Positions 1 through 15,263 are shown, numbered from the stretch's first letter. The stretch: DNA of 64,000 bases from Alphaproteobacteria bacterium (GCA_038102935.1 JAYNYG010000002.1:62027-126026), one strand, 5' to 3'. A program made the numbers and translations. Notes: generated by a model from the sequence alone, not told the origin.

Positions 1-137
1 CGGATCACACGCTGGAAGAAGTCGGCCAGCAGTTCTCCGTGACCCGTGAACGTATCCGCCAGATTGAGGCGAAGGCGCTCCGCAAGCTGAAGCATCCAAG
101 CCGCAGCCGGAAACTCCGCAGTTTCCTCGATACCTGA
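1..137 (+). CDS. rpoD: RNA polymerase primary sigma factor, 3' fragment (region 4)
   Basis: Frame from nt 3 reads [44 protein letters not shown], the canonical sigma70 region 4.2; TGA at 135-137. Confidence 0.97.
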
Positions 138-140
138 TCT

Positions 141-1340
141 TTATCGGCGTCGCATGCCGCTATTAAGCGCTGCGACGCCGATGATCACACAGACGCTGAG
201 GCTCATGAACGCGAAACCCCAGGCATAGGGGTCTTGTCGTCCGCCAGTCACATCCAGCACAAAACCGAACAGCAACGGCCCGATAAAGCTGCCGATCGCG
301 TTGGCGAAGGCCATGAGCGTAATGGCGGCCCCTCGCCTGCCCGGAAGCGCTGCCGCAGCCGCTCCGCCATTCAGCGCGCCTGAATCCGCCAGCACGAAGC
401 AATTGTGGATCAGCACCAGGGCGGCAAACAGTAGGAGCGGCCCCAAGACTGAAAACCCAACTGCAGCACATGCAATGGCCGAACACGCCATGGCGATGCC
501 AGAGGCGTAGGCGAACCCGCGTTTATGGCCGTATTCGCCGCCAATCATACTCGCCGGCATGCCAATGAATGTGAGGAACCCGGCGAGACAGGCCGCGATG
601 AACAAGTTCGGCTCAAAGCCATAAACGCCAGCCGCGAACACGAAGAACGCGACCGACCAGGCGCGGAGACCCAAAAGCTCGACAGTGTGCATGGTCGCCG
701 CAATGAAATACCCGCGCATCTGGGGATCGCGCAGCTCGTCCCTGAAATCCAGCACAGCCCGCCGCGGCCCTGCCGGCGCGGCTTCCGGTTTGGCGGCGGG
801 TAAGGCGACCAACAGCAGTACAAATGCGACGGCGTTCGTGATTGCGGGCAGCAGGAACGCAGCGCGCCAGGTCCAGGCGTCAGCGATCAATATCGCGAGG
901 ACGAAGGAGAAACTCGTGGTCGTCGCAAAGCTCGACACATAGATGGAGGCTGCCCGGCCTCGCTGGCTTTGATCCACCCGGTCGCTGATCGCCTTCACGC
1001 CGGGCATATATGTCAGCGCAAACCCAATGCCTTGCAGCACCCGATAGGCCATGCCGCTCCATAGGTCATCGGCGAGCAAGCCAAAGCCGCAATAGCCGAT
1101 GATGTTGCAGATAACTCCGGTCAACAGGATCGGTTTTGCGTCAATTTTCTCAGACAGCGCGATCAACGGCACGGTGCCGATATAGGCAACGAACATGGCG
1201 CTGGTCAGCATGCCAGCTTCGGTTTCTGAGAGGCTCCAGATGGTGATGAAATGCGGCAGCAGCGCGCCCATGGCGTGCAGGCCCGTCAGCGTCAGGCCAA
1301 GATAGACGCACATCAGAAGCAAAAGCGGGCGGAGAGCCAT
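141..1340 (-). CDS. MFS transporter
   Basis: 399 aa with about 12 hydrophobic segments in two 6-TM halves; MFS-like loops (ALSEKIDAK, RVLQGIG). Confidence 0.88.
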   Translation of the reverse strand: MALRPLLLLMCVYLGLTLTGLHAMGALLPHFITIWSLSETEAGMLTSAMFVAYIGTVPLIALSEKIDAKPILLTGVICNIIGYCGFGLLADDLWSGMAYRVLQGIGFALTYMPGVKAISDRVDQSQRGRAASIYVSSFATTTSFSFVLAILIADAWTWRAAFLLPAITNAVAFVLLLVALPAAKPEAAPAGPRRAVLDFRDELRDPQMRGYFIAATMHTVELLGLRAWSVAFFVFAAGVYGFEPNLFIAACLAGFLTFIGMPASMIGGEYGHKRGFAYASGIAMACSAIACAAVGFSVLGPLLLFAALVLIHNCFVLADSGALNGGAAAAALPGRRGAAITLMAFANAIGSFIGPLLFGFVLDVTGGRQDPYAWGFAFMSLSVCVIIGVAALNSGMRRR

Positions 1341-1419
1341 CAGGGCAGCCAGTACGGGAGCGGAAGCGGAAAACCGGGCGCGGTCTCAAATGTGCGCCCG
1401 CTCTGAACGCCAGGCGCCG

Positions 1420-2211
1420 CTATGCCTCCCTGATTTCATACCCCGCCAGCACGCCCGCTTCAATCCAGCCCCGGAGATAGCCTGCGGCTTGTCCGGCGGC
1501 TTCCTCGGCGGGAACCCATTCCATCAGGCCTTCACAGAGCTCCGCGAAGGTTGCGCCGCCATCCGCTTCGTTCAGCGCCCAGGCTTCCGCCGCATCCATA
1601 GCCCGGAAGTTCGCCTGGAAATCATCCCGCCAGATCAGCCATGCCTGCGGGTCTTTATCCGCTTCCGCCGCTGCGGGCGCGGGGTCTGTATCGTCGTTCA
1701 AGGCAAGCCAGGCCTCTGGCCCGCCATGCTGCGTCGTAATTCGGCGAATATCAGCGGCGAGCGAGAACGCCAGCATCGGCCAATCATTCGGATGCACCGC
1801 CGCCATCGCCTCCATGGCGAGATGCGGCGCATCCTCGGCCAAGAACACTTCACCCATCGCCCATTCGAGCGCCGTTAACTCACTGAGCCAGGGCCTCTCG
1901 GACCAAGGGGCGGTCTCGGCCAGGAAAGCTGGCAAGCCCGCGCCGAAATACCGGGCGTTCGGATGGCGCGATGGATGGGCTGTCACATAGCCCGCCGCCA
2001 TCTGCAAAAACGCATCAGCGCCAAGTGCGGCATGCAGCTTCTCGTAATCACCCTCAAGAACCTCAGCAAGACGAGATCCATAGGCGTGTTCATAAACCCC
2101 CATCAGCACGTCCCGGCGCTCCAGGCGGCTATCCTGGATCAAGGGCATGATGGCGTCGTCGCCAGTGAGCATCCGGGCGGCGAATGCGCGTTGCAGTTCA
2201 GGCAAGCGCAT
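1420..2211 (-). CDS. DUF2063-type MNIO partner protein (BufC/HvfC-like)
   Basis: LPELQRAF...VYEHAYGSRLAEVL...F..MA..YV..HPS...LEWA pattern; start overlaps the stop of the upstream DUF692 gene. Confidence 0.85.
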   Translation of the reverse strand: MRLPELQRAFAARMLTGDDAIMPLIQDSRLERRDVLMGVYEHAYGSRLAEVLEGDYEKLHAALGADAFLQMAAGYVTAHPSRHPNARYFGAGLPAFLAETAPWSERPWLSELTALEWAMGEVFLAEDAPHLAMEAMAAVHPNDWPMLAFSLAADIRRITTQHGGPEAWLALNDDTDPAPAAAEADKDPQAWLIWRDDFQANFRAMDAAEAWALNEADGGATFAELCEGLMEWVPAEEAAGQAAGYLRGWIEAGVLAGYEIREA

Positions 2212-3074
2212 CAGGCGGCCTTCCCTTGCGCCTCGGCGGCGATGGCGCGGGCGCGATCAAGCTCCTGCTCCATATCTGCGAACGGCGAGATATCCGCATC
2301 GCGCTCAATCATCGTCGTGATCGGTCCAAGCCTGCGGATCGTCTCGGCATAGAGCGACCACACGGCTTCGATCACTGGCGCATCATGGGTGTCGACGATA
2401 TGCGTTTCGTTATGTTCATGGCCGGCCAGATGAATTTGAATGATCCGCTCCGCCGGAAGGCCTTCGATGAAGTCAATCGGGTCAAAGCCGTGATTGAAGC
2501 CGGAGACATAAATGTTGTTGACGTCCAGCAGCAGATCACAATCCGCCCGCTTCGCCATCTCCGCCAAGAAATCCCACTCGGTCATTTCAGAATTGGCGAA
2601 GGTCACATAGGTGGAGGCGTTTTCAAGCGCGATGCGGCGGCCAAGGTGATCCTGCACCTGGCCAATGCGATCAACGACATGGGCCAGCGCTTCCTCAGTG
2701 TATGGCAGCGGCAGCAGATCATGCAGGTTAACGCCGTCAACGCCTGTCCAACAGAGGTGATCCGAAATCCAGGCTGGGTTCAACCGCTCCGCCAGCGCCT
2801 TCAGGCCATCCAGATAATCCTGATCTAGCGGGTCAACGGAACCGATGGAAAGCGAGACGCCGTGCATCACCATCGGGAAGCGTTCACGCACACGATCTAG
2901 GTTGATGAGCGGGCGACCGCCAGCGCTCATATAATTCTCAGAAATGATCTCAAACCAATCAACGCGCGGCTCTGGCGCATCGTCGGGCCGGTCCAGCAAA
3001 TCATTGTAATGCTGCGCGCGGAGGCCAAGGCCGAACCCAAGATAGGGGCGGCTCAATGCGGTATGTTCTGTCAT
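2211..3074 (-). CDS. DUF692 multinuclear non-heme iron oxidative enzyme (MNIO, BufB2-like)
   Basis: GLGLR..H, FEIISENY, HGVSLSIGS, SDHLCW, DLLPLPYTEEAL, LENAS, LLDVNNIYV, QIHLAGH, DTH, IERD. Confidence 0.95.
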   Translation of the reverse strand: MTEHTALSRPYLGFGLGLRAQHYNDLLDRPDDAPEPRVDWFEIISENYMSAGGRPLINLDRVRERFPMVMHGVSLSIGSVDPLDQDYLDGLKALAERLNPAWISDHLCWTGVDGVNLHDLLPLPYTEEALAHVVDRIGQVQDHLGRRIALENASTYVTFANSEMTEWDFLAEMAKRADCDLLLDVNNIYVSGFNHGFDPIDFIEGLPAERIIQIHLAGHEHNETHIVDTHDAPVIEAVWSLYAETIRRLGPITTMIERDADISPFADMEQELDRARAIAAEAQGKAA

Positions 3075-3100
3075 GGCTTAGATATCGGAAACTCTTGGGC

Positions 3101-3140
3101 AGAAAACAATACGGCCGGGCCTGTTTCCAGGCCCGGCCGC
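3101..3140 (-). terminator. Hairpin/leaky intrinsic terminator between the bufA2-like precursor and its MNIO
   Basis: Perfect 12-bp stem CGGCCGGGCCTG (3112-3123/3128-3139) with a GAAA tetraloop on the minus strand, followed by the imperfect U-tract ATTGTTTTCT. Confidence 0.7.
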
Positions 3141-3163
3141 ATCAATCAAGCGTGAAGCTTGGA

Positions 3164-3418
3164 TCAGGCAGGCGTGCCGCCAGCCTTCGTGCAAGCGTCG
3201 GCGGAAGCCGCCTTCGTCCAGCCCTGGCCTTTACAAGCGTTGTGGCCTTTGCAGGCGCTCGTCGCTGTAGCGCAGGCGCTGGAGCCCTTGCAGGAGTTGG
3301 CGCCAACGCATTTGACGCCAGAACCCGCAGCGGCAGGGGTCGTAGCGACCGTACCAGCAGCGAACATAGCGGCAGCAGCAGCAGCGACAACCATACCTGT
3401 GGTCTTGGAAACTTTCAT
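3164..3418 (-). CDS. Secreted Cys-rich RiPP precursor, bufferin BufA2 type
   Basis: Ala-rich Sec signal, then KCVGANSCKGSSACATATSACKGHNACKGQGW...C (six Cys, repeated NxCKG); GGAGG RBS; directly upstream of DUF692. Confidence 0.9.
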   Translation of the reverse strand: MKVSKTTGMVVAAAAAAMFAAGTVATTPAAAGSGVKCVGANSCKGSSACATATSACKGHNACKGQGWTKAASADACTKAGGTPA

Positions 3419-3512
3419 GATTAATCCTCCGTGTTTGGTTTCGAACTTAGTCTCACATCCCGCTAACAGAACATCTGCAAACGAGCTGTCATTACAGTAA
3501 GATCATGGGGCG

Positions 3513-3535
3513 GATAAGATTATTAAAGTCTTATC
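3513..3535. promoter_or_regulatory. AT-rich palindrome, candidate operator upstream of the bufA2-like gene
   Basis: GATAAGA-N9-TCTTATC inverted repeat (extends to 8/9 bp) in the doxX-bufA2 intergenic region. Confidence 0.4.
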
Positions 3536-3558
3536 ACATCACCGTGAGGACCGATTTT

Positions 3559-4032
3559 TCACTTTCGGTCCATGAACCGGTGGATCGTCGCATCCAACGA
3601 AATCAGGCCAGGCCCCTTGGAAATGATCAGCAAAAGAGCGCCCGCCCAGAACAAATGAATGTCCCAAAGGTTCGGGTACACGAAAATCTGGATCACTGCC
3701 GTCATGCCGAGCAGCGCCAATGCAGAGAGCCTGCTGAACAGCCCAAGGATGAGCAGAATCGGGAAAAGATGCTCCGCATATGTCGCAAGATAGGCCGCAA
3801 TATCTGGCGGAATGATCGGCAGGGCGTATTCGTATTCAAACAGTGTGAACGTGCCGTCCGCGACCTCAAGCCCGGACGAGGTTTTTGTCATGCCCGACTT
3901 CAGGAACACCATGGCGATGCCGACTCGCGTCGCCAGCAAAACCAGCCACATGGGGATTTGTTCCGCCATATTGACCAGCCGGTCCCAAATGCCCATTGGC
4001 CCTTCGCGTGGAATTCGCCCCGTTTCGTACAT
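3559..4032 (-). CDS. DoxX family membrane protein (BufD-like)
   Basis: RVGIAMVFLKSG..K, LFEYEYALP, LATYAEHLFPILLILGLFSRLSAL, IQIFVYP..W..H..W, GPGLISLD; true start may be at MGIWD or MAEQ. Confidence 0.92.
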   Translation of the reverse strand: MYETGRIPREGPMGIWDRLVNMAEQIPMWLVLLATRVGIAMVFLKSGMTKTSSGLEVADGTFTLFEYEYALPIIPPDIAAYLATYAEHLFPILLILGLFSRLSALALLGMTAVIQIFVYPNLWDIHLFWAGALLLIISKGPGLISLDATIHRFMDRK

Positions 4033-4043
4033 ATCGCCCTCCG

Positions 4044-4847
4044 TTAAATGTTTGTTGTTTTCACTACGTCGGCGAAGACGGTCTGCGCAAGGCAGTTCCC
4101 CAACGTCTCGCCGAAATCGAATTCTCCCTGCGCCGCGGCTAATTCCACTGCAGCGCCAATGGACTGGCCTTCGAACAATGCCGAGAGAAAGGCAAAGGTT
4201 GCAGGCTCCAGGGGCGCTAGCTCCACATCCAGATCAGGCCTGGACATGATGAGATATGCGGGATCGCCGCTCACCATGCCGCCATCAACGGCGTTATCGA
4301 GCGCCCCACGCCACAATATGTGAACCGGGAACGCCGCTTCGATCAACCTGACAGTCGGATGCGCCTCAAGGCTGGCGTTGGCGATCTCCGCAGACGGAAC
4401 AGCCGTCAGTCGGGTTGGCTCCAACCGGCCGGCGGCGGGCGCGTGAAAGCTTTCATGCATCGCCCATTCAAGGCGCGCCACATCCATCACATAACCGTGA
4501 TCCGCCAATCCAGGTGCAGCCGCGAGCGCAGCCGGGAGATCGCCGCCATATTCGAATATCCCCGCTGCGCTCGGCGGATTGGCGCGCACATAGCGCCTGG
4601 CGAAGGCGTCAAAATACGCGGCGCCGAGCAGTGCGCGCGTCGCCTCAAATACACCGCCAAGGGCTTCGGATAGCGTCGTGGCGAAATGGTTTCTGTGAAT
4701 GGCGAGGCGGCGCTCTGCCGGAATGCCATCAGCGTTCACGGCTTCAAGCAACGCGGCGGGCGGTTGCGGCTCGGCGCCATCTGCACTGACGCCACCCAGC
4801 ACCGTCGCCCGGAAGTCAGCCTGTAACGTTGCAAGACTAGGCTGCAT
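4044..4847 (-). CDS. DUF2063-type MNIO partner protein (BufC1-like)
   Basis: LATLQADF, RLAIHRNHF...L.EAL...F, NPPS, EYG..LP, DVARLEWAMHESFHA; overlaps the upstream DUF692 gene. Confidence 0.88.
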   Translation of the reverse strand: MQPSLATLQADFRATVLGGVSADGAEPQPPAALLEAVNADGIPAERRLAIHRNHFATTLSEALGGVFEATRALLGAAYFDAFARRYVRANPPSAAGIFEYGGDLPAALAAAPGLADHGYVMDVARLEWAMHESFHAPAAGRLEPTRLTAVPSAEIANASLEAHPTVRLIEAAFPVHILWRGALDNAVDGGMVSGDPAYLIMSRPDLDVELAPLEPATFAFLSALFEGQSIGAAVELAAAQGEFDFGETLGNCLAQTVFADVVKTTNI

Positions 4848-5712
4848 CAGCTGCGCCGCCTTGGGTCGCCATAATCGCCTCTGCGCGCGCCGCTTCAGCC
4901 TGAAGAACGTCCAATGCGGGAATGCGCGTGTCCCATTCGATCAGCGCCGGAACGCGGCCTGCATGCTGGATCGCCTGTTCAAACAGCGTCCAAACGGCGG
5001 CGTCCACATGGCTGCCATGATCGTCAATGCGAATTTCCTTGCCATCGTCGAAGTGGTTGATCGCATGACCCGCCAGATGAATTTCGCCAATGATGTCTGC
5101 AGGCGTTTCGGCGATGAACTGGGCGGCGTCAAAATTATGATTGCGCGCATTCACGTAAACGTTGTTGACGTCCAGCAGCGCCATGCAGCCCGCACGCTTG
5201 CAAACTTCCGCCAGAAACGCCTGCTCTGACATCGTCGAGGCAGTGAAGGTCATGTAGGCGGATGCGTTTTCGACCAGGATCGGGCGTTGAAAGGCGTCCT
5301 GCGCCTGCTGCACATTGCTGACCACTTGCGCCAAAGCTTCCTCTGTATAGGGGAGCGGCAGCAGGTCATTCAGATATGCATCGCCGACGCGAGCGAAAGA
5401 AAGATGTTCGGAGATCAGGCCAGGCTCAATCTTGGCAGCCAACTCGGCAAGCCGCGCCAAATGCGCTTTATCCAGGCCGTCTGCTGCGCCGAGGGACAAG
5501 CCGACGCCGTGCATCGACATCGGGTAATGCGCCCGGATGCGCTCCAGGTAAAGATATGGCGCGCCGCCGCCCAGATAGTTCTCTGGGTGGAATTCGAGCC
5601 ATGGGATATCGGGCCGCTCTTCGACGATCTGTTCAAAATGCGGCGCGCGGAGGCCGATCCCGGCTTCTGCTGGGATCGGCCCCGACTGCGCCGGATGCTG
5701 CGAAGACGTCAT
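4837..5712 (-). CDS. DUF692 MNIO (BufB1-like)
   Basis: GIGLRAPH, LEFHPENY, HGVGLSLG, SEHLSF, NDLLPLPYTEEAL, VENAS, LLDVNNVYV, EIHLAGH, IDDHGS, LIEWD. Confidence 0.95.
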   Translation of the reverse strand: MTSSQHPAQSGPIPAEAGIGLRAPHFEQIVEERPDIPWLEFHPENYLGGGAPYLYLERIRAHYPMSMHGVGLSLGAADGLDKAHLARLAELAAKIEPGLISEHLSFARVGDAYLNDLLPLPYTEEALAQVVSNVQQAQDAFQRPILVENASAYMTFTASTMSEQAFLAEVCKRAGCMALLDVNNVYVNARNHNFDAAQFIAETPADIIGEIHLAGHAINHFDDGKEIRIDDHGSHVDAAVWTLFEQAIQHAGRVPALIEWDTRIPALDVLQAEAARAEAIMATQGGAADAA

Positions 5713-5745
5713 CGCGCGCGTCCGGATGTTACGCTCAAACCAAGC

Positions 5746-6000
5746 TTAGCTGGCGGTCTTGGCAGAGCCGGTGAGGCGGTCGCAAAGACCAGCTGGCACC
5801 AGAACCCAAGCATCTTTCTGATCGTCAACTTTAGACGTGCCGGCGCAGGAGCTGGTTGCGGTCTGGCAATCATTCTTGCCTGCTTTCACAACGCCGTAGC
5901 ACTTTTCCATTTTCTTTTTCGCAGCGACGGCTTGGCCTGCGGCGAAGGTCATGCCAACGGCGGCGACAACAGCGGCGGCGGCGATTTGTGTTTTATTCAT
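5746..6000 (-). CDS. DUF2282 bufferin precursor (BufA1 type)
   Basis: Signal peptide, then MEKCYGVVKAGKNDC...SCAG...W..VPAGLC..L.G with four Cys (C34, C45, C52, C73); AAGGAG RBS. Confidence 0.93.
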   Translation of the reverse strand: MNKTQIAAAAVVAAVGMTFAAGQAVAAKKKMEKCYGVVKAGKNDCQTATSSCAGTSKVDDQKDAWVLVPAGLCDRLTGSAKTAS

Positions 6001-6195
6001 GAGAATTCTCCTTGGGTTCTGAAGCGGTCGACTGTTTGGCCCATTTTGAGCCGGGATTGAAAGCGTGGCGACCTACTTGGTCTTACGCTCTGCCCTAGAG
6101 ATAAGGGTGGAAGTAGATCAAGCGCCAATAACGGCTGCGTGAGGTCACGCTGCTGTCATTCGCCGTGACGCCAATTTCCCGGATAGTTTACCATC

Positions 6196-7083
6196 ATGGG
6201 AGATAAAAGCATGGCGACTGTCGCGGAGAGCGAACCAGGCGCGATCATGGGCGCCTTGCCATGGCCGGAAGCCGCAACCCGTATAACAGCCGGGCATCCG
6301 ATCATCATCCCCATCGGCGCCGCCGCCAAGGCGCATGGGCCGCATCTGCCGCTCGCGACGGACAAAATCACCGTCGAAGCGCTCGGGGAAAAGCTCGCAG
6401 CAGCGTTGCCCATTCTGGTCGCGCCTACGGTTGGTTTCGGCTACTATCCCGCCTTCGTCGAGTATCCAGCGAGCCAGCATATTTCTGGGCGGTTATTCGA
6501 GGACCTTTTGACAACGCTCATGCGCAGCTTCATCGATCATGGCGGAAGGCGCATTTTGCTTCTGAATGACGGCGTATCAACCGAAGCGCCGGTCACACTC
6601 GCCTGTCATTCGATCTATGCTGAAACAGGCATCCGGCCAGCGATGGCGCATCTCCGCCTGTTTGGGCGAGGCGCTGACCATGTGCTGGACAATCCAGATG
6701 GCGGCCATGCAGATGAACGCGAAACATCATTGATGCTGGCGCTCAGGCCAGATCTCGTGGACCTCACGAAGGCCATGCCAGCCCCAGCTGAGCATCCCAA
6801 CGGCGCCCCAAGCAGCAAGCCCCGGCCCGGCGGCGCCCGCATCATGCAGCCAATCCGCCTCGCCCATGGCCACCTGGCTGGCCCTGGCGAGCACTCCTGC
6901 GATGGCGCCACCGGCGACCCCACATTGGCCAGCGCTGAAAAAGGCGCCGCGATCCTGGCGGCGACCATGGAAGATCTAATCCAGGAAATCCGGCGCGTAT
7001 TCCATGATGCGCCCGGAATGGCGAACACGGCAATGGCGAACACGGGCATGGCGAATACGGGTGCAGATGGAGACAGCGAATGA
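6196..7083 (+). CDS. Creatininase/creatinine amidohydrolase family protein
   Basis: PIGAAAKAHGPHLPLATD, GYYPAFVEYP, GGHADERETSLMLA, GATGDPTLASAEKG. Confidence 0.88.
   Translation: MGDKSMATVAESEPGAIMGALPWPEAATRITAGHPIIIPIGAAAKAHGPHLPLATDKITVEALGEKLAAALPILVAPTVGFGYYPAFVEYPASQHISGRLFEDLLTTLMRSFIDHGGRRILLLNDGVSTEAPVTLACHSIYAETGIRPAMAHLRLFGRGADHVLDNPDGGHADERETSLMLALRPDLVDLTKAMPAPAEHPNGAPSSKPRPGGARIMQPIRLAHGHLAGPGEHSCDGATGDPTLASAEKGAAILAATMEDLIQEIRRVFHDAPGMANTAMANTGMANTGADGDSE
7018..7062 (+). repeat. 3 x 15-bp tandem repeat encoding MANTA/MANTG/MANTG
   Basis: ATGGCGAACACGGCA ATGGCGAACACGGGC ATGGCGAATACGGGT. Confidence 0.9.
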
Positions 7084-8492
7084 CAATACGGATGCAAGCT
7101 AGGTGCGGCATAGCGCTGCTCAGCGTGATCATCGCCGCCGCACTTTTCCCATCCGCTGCTGCGGCAGCGCCAGAGTGCGGCTACACAATAGCGCCGCGCG
7201 CGACAGATGACCTCCGCAATCTGGTCGTTGATGTCACCATAGACTGCACTGAATCCCGGGCACCGAAGGATTTCGCTTTCGCTTACGACGGTGAAAACCA
7301 TGCCGATTGGCGCCGCCTAGACGATGGCCGACTAACATACGCGGTGCAGCTTGGAGCCTTGGCCCGAAGCAACGCCTCGGCCGATTTCGCCGCAACGCCG
7401 CGCGGCGTGATGGCCCCGGTTGATGCGTGGCTTGGCATCGATACAACGACAGACGAGATGGCTGTAACGCCGATCATGACGGCCCCTGGCAATACGTCCG
7501 GGATTCAATTTCTACACAATCTAACTGCAAACCGGATGGACGGCTGGGAGGGCGCTATTACCCGGCAGGACTGGGCTTTTGGCGGCTATACCGTGTTCAC
7601 GGACCGCATGCCGATGCAGGTCATGACCCCTGGCCCCGGCGCATTCACAGATCCAGGGCGCAACGGCGCCGCCATGGCCGAAATCACCGTCGCCGTGCTG
7701 GATGACGGTTTCGCCATGGATGACGCGGCGATCACGGCCTGGGTCACCCGCTTTGCCGGGCTGGTTGGGCGGTACTGGGGCGGGTTTCCAGCGGATCACC
7801 TGCTGGTCGCGGTCTCGCCGCACGGGCGGGTGAATGGACCGTTCGGTCGGGTCCGCGGCGGCGGCGGCGCTACGTTGCTAATGCGGATTTCAAAGCAAGA
7901 CGATCCAAAATTCCTGCACGAACAGGATTGGGTGCTGCCCCATGAGCTCATCCATGTCGGCGCGCCCTTTGCGCCTGCCCGCCGACCTTGGTTCATGGAA
8001 GGCATGGCGACCTATCTTGAACCGCTGATCCGGGCGCTCGGCGGCGCTGCGACCGAACGGGCTGTATGGAACGAATGGGTGCGCGCGATGCCATCTGGCG
8101 CCGCTGCATTCAACACCGAAGGGCTCGAAGGACGCGGCCACCCCTATTGGTCGGGGGCGTTGTTCTTTTTACTAGCGCAATATGAAACCGCAAAGCTCGG
8201 GCGCATTGACGGCTTGGCGCCCTGCTTTCGTGCATTTCGCAACAGATTAGGCGACGCTTCCAGCCGGACGAACGTTCATGCGTTGATGCAAATTTGTGAT
8301 GAAACGCTCGGTGCGCCAGTGATGGCTGATCTTTACAAACGGTATGCCTATCCGGCGGATTTCGACATCCGGCCGCTTTGGCAGGCGCTCGGCGTTAGCC
8401 GTGGCGAGGACGGCGTTGTCCTATATACCGAAGGTAAAAAACTGCGCGATTTAATCTTCAATTCCGCGCAATTCCCGGAACCTTTGTCCTGA
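7080..8492 (+). CDS. Secreted gluzincin-type metallopeptidase (M61/M1-like)
   Basis: Signal peptide; HELIH zinc motif followed by WFMEGMATY (third ligand E); ATGA coupling to the upstream gene. Confidence 0.75.
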   Translation: MTIRMQARCGIALLSVIIAAALFPSAAAAAPECGYTIAPRATDDLRNLVVDVTIDCTESRAPKDFAFAYDGENHADWRRLDDGRLTYAVQLGALARSNASADFAATPRGVMAPVDAWLGIDTTTDEMAVTPIMTAPGNTSGIQFLHNLTANRMDGWEGAITRQDWAFGGYTVFTDRMPMQVMTPGPGAFTDPGRNGAAMAEITVAVLDDGFAMDDAAITAWVTRFAGLVGRYWGGFPADHLLVAVSPHGRVNGPFGRVRGGGGATLLMRISKQDDPKFLHEQDWVLPHELIHVGAPFAPARRPWFMEGMATYLEPLIRALGGAATERAVWNEWVRAMPSGAAAFNTEGLEGRGHPYWSGALFFLLAQYETAKLGRIDGLAPCFRAFRNRLGDASSRTNVHALMQICDETLGAPVMADLYKRYAYPADFDIRPLWQALGVSRGEDGVVLYTEGKKLRDLIFNSAQFPEPLS

Positions 8493-8657
8493 CAAAGGCT
8501 TTTCATGGTCACAGTTTCGGCTTACAAGGCTTCAATAGTCGAACCGATCCGCGCTTCAAGAGCTCTGAAACGCGCACTGTAGACGATGCGGTCGCGCCTT
8601 TCTTTGAGGCCGAACGAAAAAGCGAATTGGAAAACCGACCCAACAAAGGGGGACATT

Positions 8658-9506
8658 ATGTTTCTACGTCTCGGTAAAATGATTACGGTCGCAGGCCTTG
8701 GCCTCGGCTTAAGCGCATGTGCGCAATTCTACGACGCAGGCATGAGCGCCACGTCCAACGGCCCAGCCTTCAATGATGCGCTGACGGCCAACTACCAGAA
8801 GCTTGCCAAATGGGAAGCTGATGAGCAGGACTGGACGGACGCAGACTTCTTCGGTCAACGCGCCCTGCAGACTGCTGGCGGCGACGCTCCTGGTCCGCAG
8901 GCTCTGGCTGAGCGCGATCTTCCGGCTGAGCATGCAGGCGACATTGCATCTGCTCGCGAGATGCTGGTTGCGGCCCTTGACGGCGGCGCCCGTGAAACTT
9001 GGCCCGAAGCAGCTGCAAAAGCCCAAGCCGGCTTCGATTGCTGGATGCAGGAAGCTGAAGAAAACATTCAGCCGAAAGACATCGTGCGGTGCCGGGATAT
9101 GTTCTGGGACGGCATGAACGCCATGGAAGTTAAAGCCATGCCAGCCAAGCCGAAGCCAGCTGCTGTCGTGCCAATGGGTCCGTGGATTGTCTACTTCCCG
9201 TTTGATAGCGATGAGATCACCTACGAAGGCCAGTTGGAAATCAACAAGGCTGAGAAGGCTGCTTCCAAGCTCAAAGGCTCTCAGATGCTGCTGACCGCCC
9301 ACACCGATACGTCGGGCTCCGAGCAGTATAACCTGGACCTCTCGGCTCGCCGCGCCAAAGCGGTTGTCGATACGCTTGAGCTGATCGGCGTCTCCCGTGA
9401 CGGCGTCACCGCCAGCGCAGTCGGCGAAAGCGATCCGGCTGTCGCTACCGGCGACGGTGTACGTGAGCAGCAGAACCGCCGTGTTGAGATCCGCCTGACC
9501 AAATAA
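8658..9506 (+). CDS. OmpA-family lipoprotein
   Basis: Start moved to ATG 8658 (RBS AAGGGGGA); lipobox LSAC; AQAGFDCWMQE..E domain; C-terminal VYFPFDS, HTDTSG...YN..LS.RRA, NRRVEI. Confidence 0.92.
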   Translation: MFLRLGKMITVAGLGLGLSACAQFYDAGMSATSNGPAFNDALTANYQKLAKWEADEQDWTDADFFGQRALQTAGGDAPGPQALAERDLPAEHAGDIASAREMLVAALDGGARETWPEAAAKAQAGFDCWMQEAEENIQPKDIVRCRDMFWDGMNAMEVKAMPAKPKPAAVVPMGPWIVYFPFDSDEITYEGQLEINKAEKAASKLKGSQMLLTAHTDTSGSEQYNLDLSARRAKAVVDTLELIGVSRDGVTASAVGESDPAVATGDGVREQQNRRVEIRLTK

Positions 9507-9560
9507 GTCAGCAGGATTTCGGCCCTCAGGCAGGCTTCGGCCAGCTTGATACGGTAGACT

Positions 9561-9603
9561 AAAAGAGCCGCCGCCATGGACCCCATGGCGGCGGTTTCTT
9601 TTT
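9561..9603. terminator. Bidirectional intrinsic terminator
   Basis: CCGCCGCCATGG-ACC-CCATGGCGGCGG flanked by AAAAGAG and TTTCTTTTT, between convergent genes. Confidence 0.88.
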
Positions 9604-9612
9604 GCGTATCGA

Positions 9613-10395
9613 CTATTCCGGCACGTCTAGAGCGTGAGCCGCAAGGCGCTCATAAAGCGGCAAGGCTGCGTCTGCGATCCGGGCGAGCGGGGCCGGTAAT
9701 TCGGGTGTAGTAGCGGCCCCTGGTCCTGCGAACTCAGTCGTCGCCCAAACCCGATCGTACCAATGCGGCGCCCATGCGCCGTCAAAGGCCTTCGGACCTT
9801 TAGGCCAATGCAGCATCGCGGGATCAAAGATCAGGCCAAGCGCATCGCATAACGGCGGCAAGGCTTGCTCTGGCGCGCGTTGGATATCCTGCCCCCGGAT
9901 AACGGGCGGCGCATGGCCGAGCGCATCAGCGGCGCGATCAAACAACGCGGCCAATTGCGGATAGCCCAGAAGGTCCAGGCTGACATCCTCAAACTTCAGG
10001 GTATATGAAGCCAGCACAGACGCCGGCTCCCGGATCAGAAACGCATGAGTAGCGCGACCGAACCAGTCATCCAGATCAAACTCTGGCAACAAGTGATGCG
10101 CCATGTGTTTTTGATAATGCAGGCGCGCCCCGGTATCAGGCGGCGCCAACACCTTTGCAGCGACGTCCTTCGCCGCTTCAGGCCCTGCCGCGATCACCGC
10201 ATCGCGCATAGGGTGATCTTGGTCCGTCGCCGCCAGCCAGGCCGCATAATAGGGTTCATCCCACACGGCGCAGTCCTGGCGCTGGGCGAAGCTGTACATT
10301 AGCGCTGTCGAAACATTGCGCGGACCGGACCACATTGCGATGATGCGGTGATTTTGCGACTGTGCCATAGCAAGCATCCTGCTGACCGAATTCAC
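9613..10395 (-). CDS. Sulfotransferase-like P-loop protein (type found fused to BCAT-like aminotransferases)
   Basis: IAMWSGPRNVSTALMYSF.QR.D..V.DEPYY, YQKHMAHH, FLIREP, DG.WAPHWY. Confidence 0.8.
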   Translation of the reverse strand: MNSVSRMLAMAQSQNHRIIAMWSGPRNVSTALMYSFAQRQDCAVWDEPYYAAWLAATDQDHPMRDAVIAAGPEAAKDVAAKVLAPPDTGARLHYQKHMAHHLLPEFDLDDWFGRATHAFLIREPASVLASYTLKFEDVSLDLLGYPQLAALFDRAADALGHAPPVIRGQDIQRAPEQALPPLCDALGLIFDPAMLHWPKGPKAFDGAWAPHWYDRVWATTEFAGPGAATTPELPAPLARIADAALPLYERLAAHALDVPE

Positions 10396-10413
10396 GTGAA
10401 TCTATAGCCGCCC

Positions 10414-10731
10414 ATGCCGTTTGACGACGCCCTCGCTGACCGTGTTCGCGCTGCGCTCCAGCCTTATGGCGGGGCGGAGGAACGTGAAATGCTGGGCGGC
10501 CTGATGTTCTATCAATCCGGGACGATGCGCCTTGGCGTCGTGCAAGATCAACTACTGCTTAGACTATCCCCCGAAGCCGCCGCCGAAGCGCTTTCCCGCA
10601 ACGGCGCGGACCCTGCTGCGGAAGCTGAAATGCCCGGCATCATCACCGTATCCCCAGCCGGCCATGAGCTGGATGAGGATCTACAAGATTGGATCGAACT
10701 CGCAATGCGCCCCCAGAAAGTGCCCCGATGA
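10414..10731 (+). CDS. TfoX/Sxy N-terminal domain protein
   Basis: LADRVRAAL...EREMLGGLMF...G.M..GV....LLLRL...L.DWI..A. Confidence 0.75.
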   Translation: MPFDDALADRVRAALQPYGGAEEREMLGGLMFYQSGTMRLGVVQDQLLLRLSPEAAAEALSRNGADPAAEAEMPGIITVSPAGHELDEDLQDWIELAMRPQKVPR

Positions 10732-11024
10732 ACGATACGTTCAAATTCCTGCGGATCCTGGTTTGGGCCGCGCCCGCAGCCTTTGCCTATAACGCCTGGG
10801 GCGTGCAGGTGGCGTTGCTCACATTTGGCTGCCAAATGTTTTCTGTGAATCCGCTCACTAAGATGTACGCCGTATGGAAATCCCGGGAGGGTGAAGTGCA
10901 GGTGGAGGATGTGCAGCGGTTCTATCTGCTGATCAATCTATTGGCGGGCGCCGCATATGCGTTTTTCATCCATTCGCTGATCGGGGGCGAACCGCCCGGG
11001 CCGAACGGCTTCTTTGGCAACTGA
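10728..11024 (+). CDS. Small hypothetical membrane protein
   Basis: ATG 10728 overlaps the upstream stop (ATGA); 2-3 hydrophobic segments. Confidence 0.6.
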   Translation: MNDTFKFLRILVWAAPAAFAYNAWGVQVALLTFGCQMFSVNPLTKMYAVWKSREGEVQVEDVQRFYLLINLLAGAAYAFFIHSLIGGEPPGPNGFFGN

Positions 11025-11028
11025 TCCG

Positions 11029-11703
11029 ATGAGCGGTATCTGGTGCGTGATCCCGATCAAGGACCTGGAGAACGCAAAAACCCGGCTTGCGCCTGCATTG
11101 ACGCCAGAAGAACGCCGGGGCTTGTTTCAGTCGATGGCGGAGGATGTGCTTGAGGCGGCATCTGACGCGCCATCGCTCGCGGGCGTTCTGGTGCTAACGA
11201 ATGATCCGCGCGCAACGGCCCTGGCTGAAAAATATGGCGCGCGGGTCGAAGGCGAGCCGGCCAATATCGGTCAATCTGAAGCTGTTGCGCGCGCCGCAAA
11301 GCTTTTGGATGCTGAAGGCGCAGACGGCGTGTTGACCTTGCCAGCCGATGCGCCGCTCATCACATCAGCAGATATTGAAGCCATCATCGCCCGCCACCCG
11401 ACCGTACGCTCCGCAATGACGATTGTGCCGGATCACGCACGGCGCGGCTCTAACTGCATGGTGTTGACGCCTGGGCCGCTGATTCCCTTGCATTTCGGCC
11501 ATGTTAGCTTTGAGCCGCACTTGGCTGAGGCCGCTAAACTCGGCCTTGAACCAAATATTCTGGAAGACCTGCCGCGCGTCGCCCTTGATATTGATACGCC
11601 GGATGATTTGGCCGCAGCGCTCGCGACAGGCGCAGATTGCCGGGCGCGGGCGTTTGTTGAAGCGCACGGGATTGCAGCGCGGCTCCCAACAGGGCAAAAT
11701 TAA
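11029..11703 (+). CDS. cofC: 2-phospho-L-lactate/PEP guanylyltransferase (F420 biosynthesis)
   Basis: VIPIKDLENAKTRLAPAL, M.EDVL.A, LPADAPLI, IVPD....GSN, FG..SF..H, LDIDTPDDL. Confidence 0.92.
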   Translation: MSGIWCVIPIKDLENAKTRLAPALTPEERRGLFQSMAEDVLEAASDAPSLAGVLVLTNDPRATALAEKYGARVEGEPANIGQSEAVARAAKLLDAEGADGVLTLPADAPLITSADIEAIIARHPTVRSAMTIVPDHARRGSNCMVLTPGPLIPLHFGHVSFEPHLAEAAKLGLEPNILEDLPRVALDIDTPDDLAAALATGADCRARAFVEAHGIAARLPTGQN

Positions 11704-11744
11704 CCCGAATTCCGTGCGCTTAACAGTTTCAGGACCATCGTTCC

Positions 11745-12773
11745 ATGGCCGACATTCGTTTCAGCCTCTTCAATCGGGGCCAAAACCCCGTCGGCGATGA
11801 CATGCACGCCCGCTTCCTGGAAGCCTGCGAACAAGCCCGGCTCGGCGATAAGCTGGGTTTCGATACGCTGATGAAAGGCTCACACTACAGCGCCCACCCA
11901 CTGCTGGATTTCCAGCAGGTGCCCTTAATGGCGCGACTGATGGCGGAAGCGCCGAACATGCGCCATTGCGCCGGCATCGTGTTGCTGCCGCTGCATAAAC
12001 CCCTGGATGTCGCAGAAACTTTCGCCAATTTGGATGTGATCTCCGGCGGCAAGCTGATTTTCGGCGTCGGCATTGGCTATCGTGAGGTGGAATTCCAGGC
12101 CTTTGGCACGACCACCAAAGACGCCGCCAAGCGGTTTGAAGAAAACCTGGACGCGGTCAAGCGCCTGTGGACCGAAGAACAGGTCACAATGGAAGGCTCA
12201 CACTTCAATCTGGTTGAGGCGTCCTGCCCGGTCAAACCTTTGCAGAAGCCGCTGCCGCCGATCTGGGTTGGCGCCAATGCGGATAAAGCGATCAAGCGGG
12301 CTGCCAGGGTAGCGGACGCATGGTTCGTCAACCCGCATAACCGGCTGGATACGATCGAACGGCAGATGGGCGTTTATAAGCAGGCGCTTGAGGATAACGG
12401 CAAGCCGGACCTGCCAGATGATTTCCCGATGATGCGCGAAGTCGTAGTGGCAAAGTCCCGCGAAGAGGCGATGCGGGTCGCCGAACCCTATCTGAAAGCC
12501 AAATACGACGCCTATCATGAATGGGGCCAAGCCAAAGCCATGCCTGAGGGCGATAATGATCTTGGCATGATGTATGAGGACCTGGTGAAAGATCGGTTCT
12601 TGTTTGGCTCCCCAGATGAGGTATCCGAGCAGATCATCGACATTATCCGCCGCTTCGGCGTGAACCACTTCGTCTTTGGCATTCAATATCCAGGCATGCC
12701 GAATTCCATGGTGCTGGACGAAATGCAGATGCTGGCGGAAGAAGTATTTCCCGCCGTGCGCAGCGGGGTTTAG
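11745..12773 (+). CDS. Luciferase-like (LLM) flavin/F420-dependent oxidoreductase
   Basis: LLPLHKPLDVAE..A.LDVISGG.LIFGVGIGYR..EF, KPLQKP.PPIWVGA, AIKRAAR; lies between cofC and fbiC. Confidence 0.88.
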   Translation: MADIRFSLFNRGQNPVGDDMHARFLEACEQARLGDKLGFDTLMKGSHYSAHPLLDFQQVPLMARLMAEAPNMRHCAGIVLLPLHKPLDVAETFANLDVISGGKLIFGVGIGYREVEFQAFGTTTKDAAKRFEENLDAVKRLWTEEQVTMEGSHFNLVEASCPVKPLQKPLPPIWVGANADKAIKRAARVADAWFVNPHNRLDTIERQMGVYKQALEDNGKPDLPDDFPMMREVVVAKSREEAMRVAEPYLKAKYDAYHEWGQAKAMPEGDNDLGMMYEDLVKDRFLFGSPDEVSEQIIDIIRRFGVNHFVFGIQYPGMPNSMVLDEMQMLAEEVFPAVRSGV

Positions 12774-12833
12774 AGGTGAGTATGGGTTCCATGCTTCAGG
12801 CTGAAGCAGTTGTCTCAGGGATGATCACAGCCC

Positions 12834-15263
12834 GTGGATAACATCGACGAAATTATCGCCGCTGCTGCAGGCGGCGCGCGGCTTTTCCATGATGAAGCGT
12901 TGGCGCTGGCCGAAACCGGGCCGGATGACCTAACGCCGCTGATGGCCGCCGCCGCAACGCTGCGGGATGCGCATTGGGGTGACAAGGTCTCCTATAGCCG
13001 CAAAGTCTTCATTCCGCTGACGCATCTCTGCCGGGATGTTTGCCACTATTGCACTTTCGCCAAGCCGCCAAAGAAAGGCGCGCTTGCGTTTATGACGCCG
13101 GAGCAGGTGCTCGCCGCCGCCCGCGCAGGTCAGGCCCAGGGCTGCAAAGAAGCGCTGTTCACGCTCGGCGACAAACCGGAACTCCGCTACCGGGCTGCAC
13201 GCGAACACTTGGCCGAACTTGGCTTTGAGACGACATTGGATTACCGCGCCGCCATGGCGAAGCTGGTATTTGAGGAAACCGGGATCGTCCCGCATCTCAA
13301 TCCTGGCTTGATGACCGACGAAGACCTCAAAACCCTCCGCCCCGTCGCCGCTAGTATGGGCATTATGGTCGAAAGCCTATCGGAACGGCTGACCGAAAAA
13401 GGCATGCCGCATTACGGCTCCCTGGATAAGAAACCCCAGGCCCGGATTGATACGCTGGAGGCCGCAGGCCGGGCGCAGGTTCCGTTCACAACCGGCATCC
13501 TAATCGGCATTGGCGAAACACGCGCTGAGCGGATCGAAGCATTGCTTGAAATCCGCCGGGTGCAGGAAGCGCATGGGCATATCCAGGAAGTTATCGTACA
13601 GAACTTCCGCGCCAAGCCGGACACCAAAATGCGGGATTGGCCGGAACCTGATCTGGATGATCTGGCCTGGACGGTCGCTATCGCGCGCCTTGTGATGGGC
13701 GGTGAGATGAGCGTGCAAGCGCCGCCGAACCTCTCGCCCGGCGGCCTCGCCAAGCTGGTGCGCGCAGGCGTCAATGATTGGGGCGGCGTATCGCCAGTAA
13801 CGCCGGATTATGTGAACCCAGAAGCGCCTTGGCCGCATCTCCAGCGCCTGGCTAACGAAACGGCGGCGGCGGGCAAGCTGCTGCTGGAACGGCTCACGGT
13901 CTATCCATCCTATGCGCTTGATGCAGCGCGCTGGGTTGATCCCGCCCTGGCTCCCTCCATCCGCCGCGCCATTGATGGCGAAGGCTATGCGCGCGCCGAC
14001 GAATGGGAAGCCGGAAAGCCGCATGATCCGCCAAAACGCGACCTAGACCTGCTGGCAGAACGACAAGCCCCCATCCAAGGCTCCCGCCTCGCCCGCATCC
14101 TCGACAAGCCGTTCGCGGATAAAATGCTGGATGCGGATGAAGCTGCATTCCTGTTCTCCGCCCGTGGCGATGCGTTTTCCGCCGTCGCCCGTGCTGCGGA
14201 CGCGCTCCGCCAGGAGGTTTCCGGCGATACGCTCACATATGTCGTGAACCGGAATATCAACTACACCAATGTCTGCTATTTCAAATGCCAGTTCTGCGCT
14301 TTCTCCAAGGGCAAACTGACAGAGAACCTCCGTGGCAAGCCCTATGTGCTGGACATGGAAGAGATTGAGCGCCGCGTCGGAGAAGCATGGGCCAGGGGCG
14401 CGACTGAGGTTTGCATGCAGGGCGGCATCCACCCCGCCTATACCGGGCAGACCTATCTGGACATTCTCGCCGCCGTCCGCCGGGGCGCGCCGGATATTCA
14501 TATCCACGCATTCACGCCTTTGGAAGTGCGCCAGGGCGCCGAAACGCTTGGCCTGCCGATCCCCGAATATCTTGGCATGCTGAAGGATGCTGGCCTCAGC
14601 ACCCTGCCCGGCACCGCCGCCGAAATCCTCCATGACGATGTGCGCAACATCATCTGCCCGGACAAGCTGAACACAGCCGAATGGTTTGAGGTGATGCGGG
14701 CGGCGCATGATATCGGCCTCCGCTCGACCGCGACCATCATGTACGGTCATGTTGAGCATTACGGCCACTGGGCGGCGCATCTGCTGCGGCTCCGCCAAGC
14801 GCAATCTGAATCTGGCGGGTTCTCAGAACTGGTGCCATTGCCGTTTGTGGCGGAAGAAGCGCCGATCTATCTGAAAGGCTTGGCGCGCAAAGGACCCACC
14901 TTCCGGGAAGCGATTCTGATGCATAGCATCGCCCGGTTGGCGCTGTTCCCGTGGTTCTCGAATATCCAGGCGAGCTGGGTGAAGCTTGGGCCGGATGGCG
15001 TTCAGGCTGCGCTGAACGCCGGCGCCAACGATATCGGCGGCACCTTGATGAACGAAAGCATCACCCGCGCCGCTGGCGCAGCCCATGGCGAGGAATTGGC
15101 GCCGCATCAAATGGAAGCCATCGCTCACGGCATTGGCCGCCCGGTCCGCCAACGCTCAACGCTCTATGGCTTTCCGCCAGAAGCGCAACAACAACGCGCC
15201 CGCCAGGCAGCCCCGCTCGACGCCGTAATCAATCGCCCCGCCAAGGAGTATGAGCGCGCGTGA
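12834..15263 (+). CDS. fbiC: Bifunctional FO synthase (CofG-CofH fusion)
   Basis: Two radical-SAM motifs, CRDVCHYC (after YSRKVFIPLT) and CYFKCQFC (after NRNINYTN); GVNDWGGVSPVTPDYVNPEAPWP; GANDIGGTLMNESITRAAGA. Confidence 0.95.
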   Translation: MDNIDEIIAAAAGGARLFHDEALALAETGPDDLTPLMAAAATLRDAHWGDKVSYSRKVFIPLTHLCRDVCHYCTFAKPPKKGALAFMTPEQVLAAARAGQAQGCKEALFTLGDKPELRYRAAREHLAELGFETTLDYRAAMAKLVFEETGIVPHLNPGLMTDEDLKTLRPVAASMGIMVESLSERLTEKGMPHYGSLDKKPQARIDTLEAAGRAQVPFTTGILIGIGETRAERIEALLEIRRVQEAHGHIQEVIVQNFRAKPDTKMRDWPEPDLDDLAWTVAIARLVMGGEMSVQAPPNLSPGGLAKLVRAGVNDWGGVSPVTPDYVNPEAPWPHLQRLANETAAAGKLLLERLTVYPSYALDAARWVDPALAPSIRRAIDGEGYARADEWEAGKPHDPPKRDLDLLAERQAPIQGSRLARILDKPFADKMLDADEAAFLFSARGDAFSAVARAADALRQEVSGDTLTYVVNRNINYTNVCYFKCQFCAFSKGKLTENLRGKPYVLDMEEIERRVGEAWARGATEVCMQGGIHPAYTGQTYLDILAAVRRGAPDIHIHAFTPLEVRQGAETLGLPIPEYLGMLKDAGLSTLPGTAAEILHDDVRNIICPDKLNTAEWFEVMRAAHDIGLRSTATIMYGHVEHYGHWAAHLLRLRQAQSESGGFSELVPLPFVAEEAPIYLKGLARKGPTFREAILMHSIARLALFPWFSNIQASWVKLGPDGVQAALNAGANDIGGTLMNESITRAAGAAHGEELAPHQMEAIAHGIGRPVRQRSTLYGFPPEAQQQRARQAAPLDAVINRPAKEYERA

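Follow-up and report, generated by a model that had tools for sequence, protein, structure and literature searches.

Two tandem bufferin clusters of an uncultured alphaproteobacterium, with a CenR-box-like dyad before each precursor gene and two recurrent companion genes

Introduction

Bufferins form a very large, recently defined class of peptides that are made by the ribosome and then altered after translation (RiPPs). To our knowledge their regulation is known only for Caulobacter, where it lies with SigF/NrsF, and the current view of their clusters is one of four core genes and no more. A stretch of 64,000 nucleotides (nt) from Alphaproteobacteria bacterium (GCA_038102935.1, JAYNYG010000002.1:62027-126026), here called the window and numbered from its first letter, raises the question of how else a bufferin system may be controlled and what else may belong to it. 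The original prediction, made from the sequence of the window, had placed two complete bufferin clusters in tandem on one strand between 1420 and 6000, with a single DoxX gene shared by the two units and with regulation by something other than an adjacent sigma/anti-sigma pair.

The window belongs to a 4.17-Mb assembly, 99.15% complete, of an uncultured marine or estuarine alphaproteobacterium, and the stretch occurs in many marine and estuarine DNA runs. Published work is cited here by PMC number, from excerpts of the papers concerned. As a whole, the locus is probably best explained as a dual bufferin cluster with CenR-type control, hairpin attenuation and companion enzymes that act on bufferins.

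The core of the cluster

Translation revealed seven tightly packed and intact open reading frames (ORFs) on the minus strand, running from 6000 to 1420:

5746..6000, minus strand: bufA1, DUF2282 Buf1-type precursor of 84 amino acids with 4 Cys (EKC, NDC, SSC, GLC)
4837..5712, minus strand: bufB1, MNIO maturase of the B1 clade
4044..4847, minus strand: bufC1, DUF2063 partner, overlapping bufB1 by 11 nt
3559..4032, minus strand: doxX (bufD), membrane protein of the DoxX family, part of the buf1 unit
3164..3418, minus strand: bufA2, Buf2-type precursor of 84 amino acids with 6 Cys and three xCKG repeats
2211..3074, minus strand: bufB2, MNIO maturase of the B2 clade
1420..2211, minus strand: bufC2, DUF2063 partner, overlapping bufB2 by 1 nt

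The family assignments agreed with the original prediction for both precursors and for the two enzyme pairs. BufA1 matched Pfam PF10048 (DUF2282) at 82.4 bits against a gathering cut-off of 22.4, and BufA2, predicted as a 6-Cys precursor with CKG repeats, matched the NCBIfam equivalog NF050166 (Cu_RiPP_BufA2) at 77.7 bits against a cut-off of 60. Each unit was found to have its own DUF692 (MNIO) and DUF2063 gene. BufB1 and BufB2 scored 362.2 and 377.5 bits respectively with NCBIfam NF050167 (MNIO_BufB; cut-off 310) and, also above the gathering score, 336.7 and 372.6 bits with Pfam PF05114 (MbnB_TglH_ChrH); they are the only MNIO genes in the whole genome. BufC1 and BufC2 scored 65.0 and 63.3 bits with Pfam PF09836 (DUF2063; cut-off 27.2). 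The DoxX protein matched Pfam PF07681 at 61.2 bits (cut-off 23.6) and stayed below the cut-off of NCBIfam NF050144 (HvfX) with 45.1 bits against 80.

Both precursor translations read as Sec-type, with a basic, hydrophobic, Ala-rich N-terminus and AxA-like sites at its end, and the four Cys of BufA1 were conserved in its orthologues (L003-L010), which were 74-90% identical. The gene bufA1 is followed by MNIO, DUF2063 and DoxX genes, as in a Buf1 cluster, and both units agree with the sequence-level definitions of Buf1 and Buf2 by Pfam and NCBIfam. These assignments mark the locus as a true double bufferin cluster with an ordinary core.

The shared DoxX gene of the original prediction fared less well. 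In relatives doxX goes with the buf1 unit or with bufA1, the bufA1-doxX pairing being present in L020, L021 and L082, and it is absent from Dongiaceae-type double clusters. In Caulobacter, doxX is described as part of buf1 and as dispensable (PMC11626156).

One marine RNA library contained two exact contigs, one of 2091-2355 that bridges the bufB2/bufC2 junction and one of 157 nt that lies on bufA2 (3202-3358). These contigs give a weak hint of expression of the buf2 unit, since DNA can be present in such libraries; buf1 and p470 had no such contig, which has no bearing on whether they are expressed.

The divergent companion genes

The original prediction had nothing to say of the operon that diverges from bufA1:

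6196..7083, plus strand: creatininase-fold amidohydrolase of a distinct subfamily, without signal peptide, divergent from bufA1
7080..8492, plus strand: p470, secreted M61/M1-like gluzincin with HELIH...WFMEGMATYLEP, its start overlapping the creatininase-like gene (ATGA)

A search of p470 against Pfam, including M61 (PF05299) and M1, and against NCBIfam gave no family at E values up to 10, a PDB sequence search returned nothing useful, and all 31 of 31 close homologues were unnamed or called hypothetical. The protein has a signal peptide, a conserved N-terminal Cys pair and invariant H288, E289, H292 and E307, with the motif HExxH...WxxEGxAT. Its AlphaFold2 model (pLDDT 90.5) was best matched by Foldseek to the M61 structure 7xyo (E 2.2e-17, TM-score ~0.57) and next to M1 peptidases, including the lanthipeptide peptidase EryP; among its protein-atlas neighbours, PF05299 was found on 12-52% of members. 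By motif and predicted fold p470 is a secreted M61-like gluzincin metallopeptidase. It has in common with M61 glycyl aminopeptidases and M1 peptidases including EryP (PDB 7xyo, 6kp0, 7v9p) the two-domain fold, HExxH and the downstream glutamate of WxxEGxAxY, and differs from them in a shorter spacer between HExxH and that glutamate, a Sec signal peptide and the N-terminal Cys pair. Downstream of p470, at 8586-9506, lies an OmpA/Pal-like lipoprotein gene, and this pairing is kept in the organism's own family (L024-L028, L008, L010).

The creatininase-like protein matched Pfam PF02633 at 149.1 bits against 31.3. Creatininase and IolN were rejected as identities, with scores below the NCBIfam cut-offs, as was the mycofactocin maturation peptidase MftE (TIGR03964, 77.4 bits against 172). 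A creatininase fold beside a RiPP cluster is common to MftE and this protein, whereas here Lys stands for the first Glu and NTGVSTE for GHxE; the score and the different motif set are why we do not regard it as MftE. The signature GAAAK(A/E)HGPHLP / NTGVSTE / GGHADERETS was present in 46/47 homologues. Alignment to 1J2T/3A6E placed Lys where Glu precedes HG and Gly-Val-Ser at the His of GH(Y)E, and the canonical binuclear metal ligand set of creatinine amidohydrolase was not found in the protein by this alignment.

Linkage of the companions to bufferin clusters

Relatives of p470 numbered 332 in species-representative genomes, and the counts of p470 loci refer to the best 80 of these 332. An MNIO gene was present in 29 of the 80 loci, 15 of them with both the B1 and the B2 type, and a creatininase-like partner adjoined p470 in 45. 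Neither was found in 16 loci, and one further locus is a deletion remnant. The arrangements of p470 and buf genes are of at least five kinds. In the organism's own family the p470/creatininase operon diverges from bufA1; in 12 Dongiaceae-type loci the order is A2-B2-C2-p470-(A1)-B1-C1, all on the same strand, and the gaps measure 29-89 nt; and the orders A1-doxX-p470, p470-A2-B2-C2 and A2-B2-C2-creatininase, the last convergent with p470, were also found. Among 41 related genomes p470 occurred in 13, of which 12 were MNIO-positive with the genes mostly less than 6 kb apart; the thirteenth (G003, L026) has a stop-ridden p470 fragment beside a bufC2 fragment, a deletion scar. The p470 and creatininase-like pair are recurrent neighbours of bufferin clusters.

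Ten Dongiaceae-type loci (L051, L054, L057 from Dongia deserti, L058, L060, L062, L064, L075, L081 and L046) have p470 directly before bufB1-bufC1, with gaps of 29-89 nt, and no DUF2282 gene was found in them within up to 10 kb on each side. In these clusters either the substrate of B1C1 is encoded elsewhere or p470 fills the precursor slot. Because p470 takes the precursor position in p470-bufB1-bufC1 loci that have no DUF2282 gene, it may perhaps itself be an MNIO substrate.

No creatininase, M61 or aminopeptidase was mentioned in the bufferin literature that was found, and neither creatininase nor PF02633 appeared in the supplements of PMC13097082 and PMC12452194, the PDF supplements (among them Table S1 of PMC13097082) lying outside this search. 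In the excerpts of the bufferin survey, genes of other families were required to lie at an intergenic distance of ≤10 bp, and additional genes were reported only at extremely low proportions (PMC12452194). This Pfam-based survey with its 10-bp limit may well have missed the companions, because p470 has no Pfam family and both genes are divergent here.

It is quite possible, though not what we favour, that the peptidase and the amidohydrolase are mere fellow members of an envelope-stress regulon, acting on other envelope substrates and without a role for bufferins. The 50 of the 80 p470 loci that have no buf gene in the stretch around p470, 34 of which keep the creatininase partner, would fit this, as would CenR regulons, which are described as full of unrelated envelope proteins (PMC9275681), and the report that the Sec signal peptidase alone suffices for Caulobacter bufferins (PMC11626156). 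Two findings speak against it: the linkage persists through at least five gene orders, in one of which the insertion sits on the same strand between the buf2 and buf1 units and leaves gaps of 29-89 nt, and among the 41 relatives intact p470 occurred only in MNIO-positive genomes. Companions that act on bufferins are the reading we prefer.

Regulatory sequences upstream of the precursors

No ECF sigma or anti-sigma gene adjoins the cluster, as the original prediction had noted; its suggestion that an ECF16/NrsF pair be sought elsewhere in the genome led to 0 matches of NrsF (PF06532) in the 99.15%-complete assembly, the Caulobacter control being found. The SigF promoter motif GTAACC-N16-CGAA (PMC3511200), with up to two mismatches, was absent from 6001-6195 upstream of bufA1 and from 3419-3558 upstream of bufA2, and its 30 matches in the whole window compare with 34.4 expected by chance. 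On this sequence evidence the locus is outside SigF/NrsF control. A scan of 1-6400 with the sigma-70 consensus gave 0 sites, and no regulator gene was found to recur beside the cluster in the window, in relatives or upstream of p470 in L053. The ECF/NepR/PhyR genes beside a Dongia cluster were set aside as a general stress system; their closest match in the organism's own genome reaches no more than 36% identity. Near the cluster, rpoD is the sole sigma gene; its 3′-end (region 4.2) occupies 1-136, and it converges on an MFS gene just outside the cluster.

Alignment of the upstream regions of relatives revealed a dyad, TCAC-N6-GTGA, which an arm variant widens to TCAC-N6-GT(G/T)A. It was found in the window at these positions:

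3534..3547, no strand assigned: dyad TCACATCACCGTGA, CenR-box-like, 129 nt upstream of the bufA2 start
6129..6148, minus strand: GTGA-CC-TCAC-GCAGCC-GTTA, CenR-box-like, in the 195-bp divergent intergenic region
4487..4500, no strand assigned: third exact dyad, TCACATAACCGTGA, inside bufC1

The distance from the 6129-6148 site to bufA1 is 142 nt and to the creatininase-like gene 48 nt, the site being upstream of both. The dyad inside bufC1 is identical to the bufA2 site at 13/14 positions. It is confined to the closest relatives, and it may be an auxiliary site or have arisen by chance. As in the SigF-NrsF system, one regulatory signal apparently stands at both precursor promoters; the difference is that here NrsF is lacking and neither promoter has GTAACC-N16-CGAA.

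The dyad was present upstream of bufA2 in 24/35 loci and upstream of bufA1 in 14/24, and the loci that bear it span the organism's own family, a second family and Dongiaceae-type metagenome-assembled genomes, and include the isolate Dongia deserti. The 4.17-Mb genome contains 22 exact copies, 10 of them intergenic. In the 80 p470 loci (1.21 Mb), 22 of the 30 exact dyads fell in the upstream stretches (up to ~400 nt) of buf, doxX, p470 or creatininase genes, a fraction that makes up 7.6% of the sequence and in which 2.3 dyads would be expected by chance (binomial p ~7e-19, the loci being kin). Among these 22 are dyads that precede p470 in loci without buf genes (L053, L056, L059, L065, L098). 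Like the divergent operon, the dyad and the hairpin described below are additions to the original prediction.

CenR as the candidate regulator

The site consensus of Sinorhizobium meliloti CenR, an OmpR-family regulator of the CenK-CenR system, is given as AgTCAC--C--cGTgAct (PMC9561847). Binding to AGTCAC-N6-GTGACT at srlA was established by gel-shift and mutagenesis, with the TCA triplet essential; other sites include AGTCACATCACTGTGACG and, at chvI, AGTCACGGCCGCGTTACT, which has a GTTA variant (PMC9561847, PMC11328730). The GTTA arm of the bufA1 site is this same variant. For Rhodobacter sphaeroides CenR, chromatin immunoprecipitation sequencing gave the consensus TGA-N8-TGA and a regulon made up almost wholly of envelope proteins (PMC9275681). 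The promoter regions of the locus thus contain predicted sites of the CenR type (AGTCAC-N6-GTGACT / TCA-N8-TGA).

The core TCAC-N6-GTGA, the GTTA arm variant, the TCA-N8-TGA reading and exported envelope targets are common to the CenK-CenR system and the sites studied here. A thioredoxin-fold gene is a further likeness: one of the 10 intergenic dyads of the genome (contig C59) precedes a gene of the DsbA/thioredoxin fold, an arrangement like that at srlA, which CenR controls in S. meliloti. This dyad, GTCACACATACGTGAC, precedes a protein with a CGYC motif (G000:C59:56399-57342). The difference is that the CenK-CenR literature found contains no bufferin, MNIO or M61-like targets and that the site is known here by its sequence; among the matches listed, no CenR/CenK paper also named DUF692, DUF2282, DUF2063, DoxX, MNIO or M61-like genes.

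Five OmpR-family regulators are encoded in the genome. PhoB and CtrA pass NCBIfam cut-offs, and one is CopR/CusR-like at 247.9 bits, below the cut-off of 279.2. Another presumably resembles ChvI. The CenR candidate (C97:5756-6445), an OmpR-family protein with Asp56 and without a named family, is ~70% identical across Rhodospirillales, and the source names of its gene are generic only. An exact dyad lies ~55 nt past the stop of this gene, before an MBL-fold hydrolase gene (G000:C97:5689-5702).

The site before each precursor and before the peptidase operon matches the CenR binding site, and the whole module is therefore most likely part of the CenK-CenR cell-envelope regulon, as far as binding-site likeness can indicate. 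That some other regulator binds the dyad, such as a dimeric repressor dedicated to metal or redox sensing whose gene lies elsewhere, is a rather unlikely but real alternative. In its favour, the site forms a perfect palindrome, as is seldom the case with OmpR-family proteins, the match with CenR is one of binding-site likeness, neither the candidate cenR nor the chvI-like gene has a dyad upstream, and the genome also has CueR and the CopR/CusR-like regulator. Against such a regulator stand the facts that the CenR site is the only published match found, in two papers, for TCAC-N6-GTGA and shares the arm variants and the TCA-N8-TGA reading, that no dyad was found near copA, copZ or cueR in the genome, and that the CueR box at cueR differs. 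CenR remains our preferred candidate.

The hairpin between bufA2 and bufB2

The gap between the second precursor gene and its maturase gene contains an inverted repeat:

3097..3144, minus strand: GC-rich hairpin of 17 pairs with a T-rich tail, terminator- or attenuator-like

A stable hairpin was present at this position in 11/11 loci examined (-24.8 to -39.3 kcal/mol). Compensatory changes support 6 of the consensus's 14 pairs, and several of the T-tails are weak as terminators. The hairpin is probably a partial terminator that would set how much precursor message is made relative to enzyme message. One match only, at chance level (E 0.67), came from an Rfam scan of 1-10000.

Copper or another role

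The characterised Buf1 and Buf2 peptides are copper-induced and copper-protective (PMC11626156), and the NCBIfam equivalog models are passed here, so that a role for these peptides with a metal other than copper, or in sulfur or redox chemistry, seems improbable for this marine organism. Some features would accord with it: no copper gene was found within the window, the double cluster lies beside cysD-cysNC in other families, DoxX proteins have been linked to sulfur redox chemistry, and the SigF targets of Caulobacter also respond to Cr and Cd (both PMC3511200).

The cysD-cysNC flank was seen in L057, L062, L081 and L097/L020, of Dongiaceae type or from the second family, where the double cluster is divergent from these genes; an M23 peptidase gene and a bufactofilin-type (bactofilin) gene come next. 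This neighbourhood may reflect a sulfur-supply link or plain synteny.

Distribution, paralogy and loss

The order A1-B1-C1-doxX-A2-B2-C2 was found in 6/10 genomes of the organism's own genus, its own genome counted, and identically in 4/8 genomes of a second genus of its family; a third genus of the family has buf1ABCD only. In an even sample of the class Alphaproteobacteria 154/401 genomes had an MNIO gene and, among the matches listed, adjacent MNIO pairs occurred only in the organism's own family (G000, G010) and in a second family (G108, G397), where the order is permuted to B1-C1-A2-B2-C2-A1-doxX.

BufB1 and BufB2 are ~45% identical. A maturase tree of 61 sequences from all fetched loci split into B1 and B2 with 100/100 support; the labels were taken from best tblastn hits, but the split itself is carried by its branch support. 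Both halves, B1 and B2, show the same groupings by genus, by family and for Dongiaceae, and the subtrees are largely parallel. As read from this tree, the two units are ancient paralogues inherited together, without recent duplication; the tandem is an old association of paralogous systems, because the split has full support and the same groupings recur in both halves.

The cluster is absent in 4/10 genomes of the genus. In G003 (locus L026, ~9489-11027) the double cluster and the creatininase-like gene are gone through one clean deletion, which spans from mid-bufC2 to residue ~95 of p470 and has left a p470 remainder with in-frame stops; the flanking MFS and ompA-like genes are intact. It is highly improbable that either unit is decaying as a redundant duplicate: clusters are readily lost, as these four genomes and the clean deletion illustrate, but none of the seven frames is interrupted, conservation of both units extends over genera and families at a B1/B2 identity of ~45%, and each unit has its own dyad.

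The MFS gene (141-1340) was considered as a member of the system and rejected because it is kept only in the closest relatives and survives the G003 deletion. A few kb from the cluster, 11014-15263 holds genes of coenzyme F420-type biosynthesis: one for a CofC-like protein, one for a luciferase-like oxidoreductase and one for an 809-amino-acid radical-SAM protein in which CofG and CofH are fused.

Discussion

The nearest known systems are buf1ABCD and buf2ABC of Caulobacter vibrioides (PMC11626156, PMC12452194). These are of the same seven families, with the internal orders A-B-C-D and A-B-C, and their precursors are Sec-exported with 4 and 6 Cys, as predicted by sequence here, where both maturases also pass MNIO_BufB. 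In Caulobacter the clusters are at two loci, whereas here they abut on one strand, without SigF/NrsF and the SigF promoter; a CenR-like dyad precedes each precursor gene, a hairpin with a T-run follows bufA2, and an M61-like peptidase gene and a creatininase-like gene lie alongside.

The mechanism we propose starts from BufA1 and BufA2, which would be made with Sec signal peptides. By analogy with Caulobacter, B1C1 would modify BufA1 and B2C2 would modify BufA2 in the cytoplasm, converting Cys to 5-thiooxazole, and the modified peptides would be exported and, like their Caulobacter homologues, would buffer periplasmic copper. The TCAC-N6-GT(G/T)A site before the precursors and the peptidase operon would put the module under CenK-CenR. 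The hairpin and T-run after bufA2 would probably end part of the transcripts, which would leave more message for the precursor than for the maturase. The M61-like peptidase probably serves the trimming or turnover of bufferins in the periplasm, and the creatininase-like amidohydrolase would probably hydrolyse a bufferin product in the cytoplasm.

Several observations weigh against this explanation. With regard to control, the CenR link is one of motif likeness to sites of other orders, and the candidate regulator, like the ChvI-like gene, has no dyad upstream. The dyad is missing from 11/35 upstream regions of bufA2, three of these being truncated loci, and from 10/24 of bufA1, these ten being either buf1-only clusters from other genera or bufA1 genes in an internal position. 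The RNA-library contigs cover only the buf2 unit and are possibly contaminating DNA. With regard to the companions, 15 of 27 MNIO-positive relatives have no p470, nor does the double-cluster genome G010, and besides the 50 p470 loci without a buf gene around them one more has only a bufC2 remnant. The counts of dyads and of linkage overstate independence, because related loci are kin. Finally, the two residues replaced in the creatininase-like protein are ones that we take to be canonical metal ligands.

Taken with its relatives, the locus points to a second kind of control for bufferins, widespread and by way of a CenR-type site, to two conserved companion enzymes that were unreported in the bufferin literature found, and to a conserved attenuator after the Buf2 precursor. 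Tentatively, and with odds that we would put as rather low for the statement as a whole, a broad set of Alphaproteobacteria may have bufferins wired to the essential CenK-CenR system and not to a metal-specific ECF pair; in these bacteria the peptidase might trim or recycle thiooxazole peptides, the amidohydrolase might open or salvage a heterocyclic product, and p470 would perhaps be a substrate of an MNIO enzyme itself.

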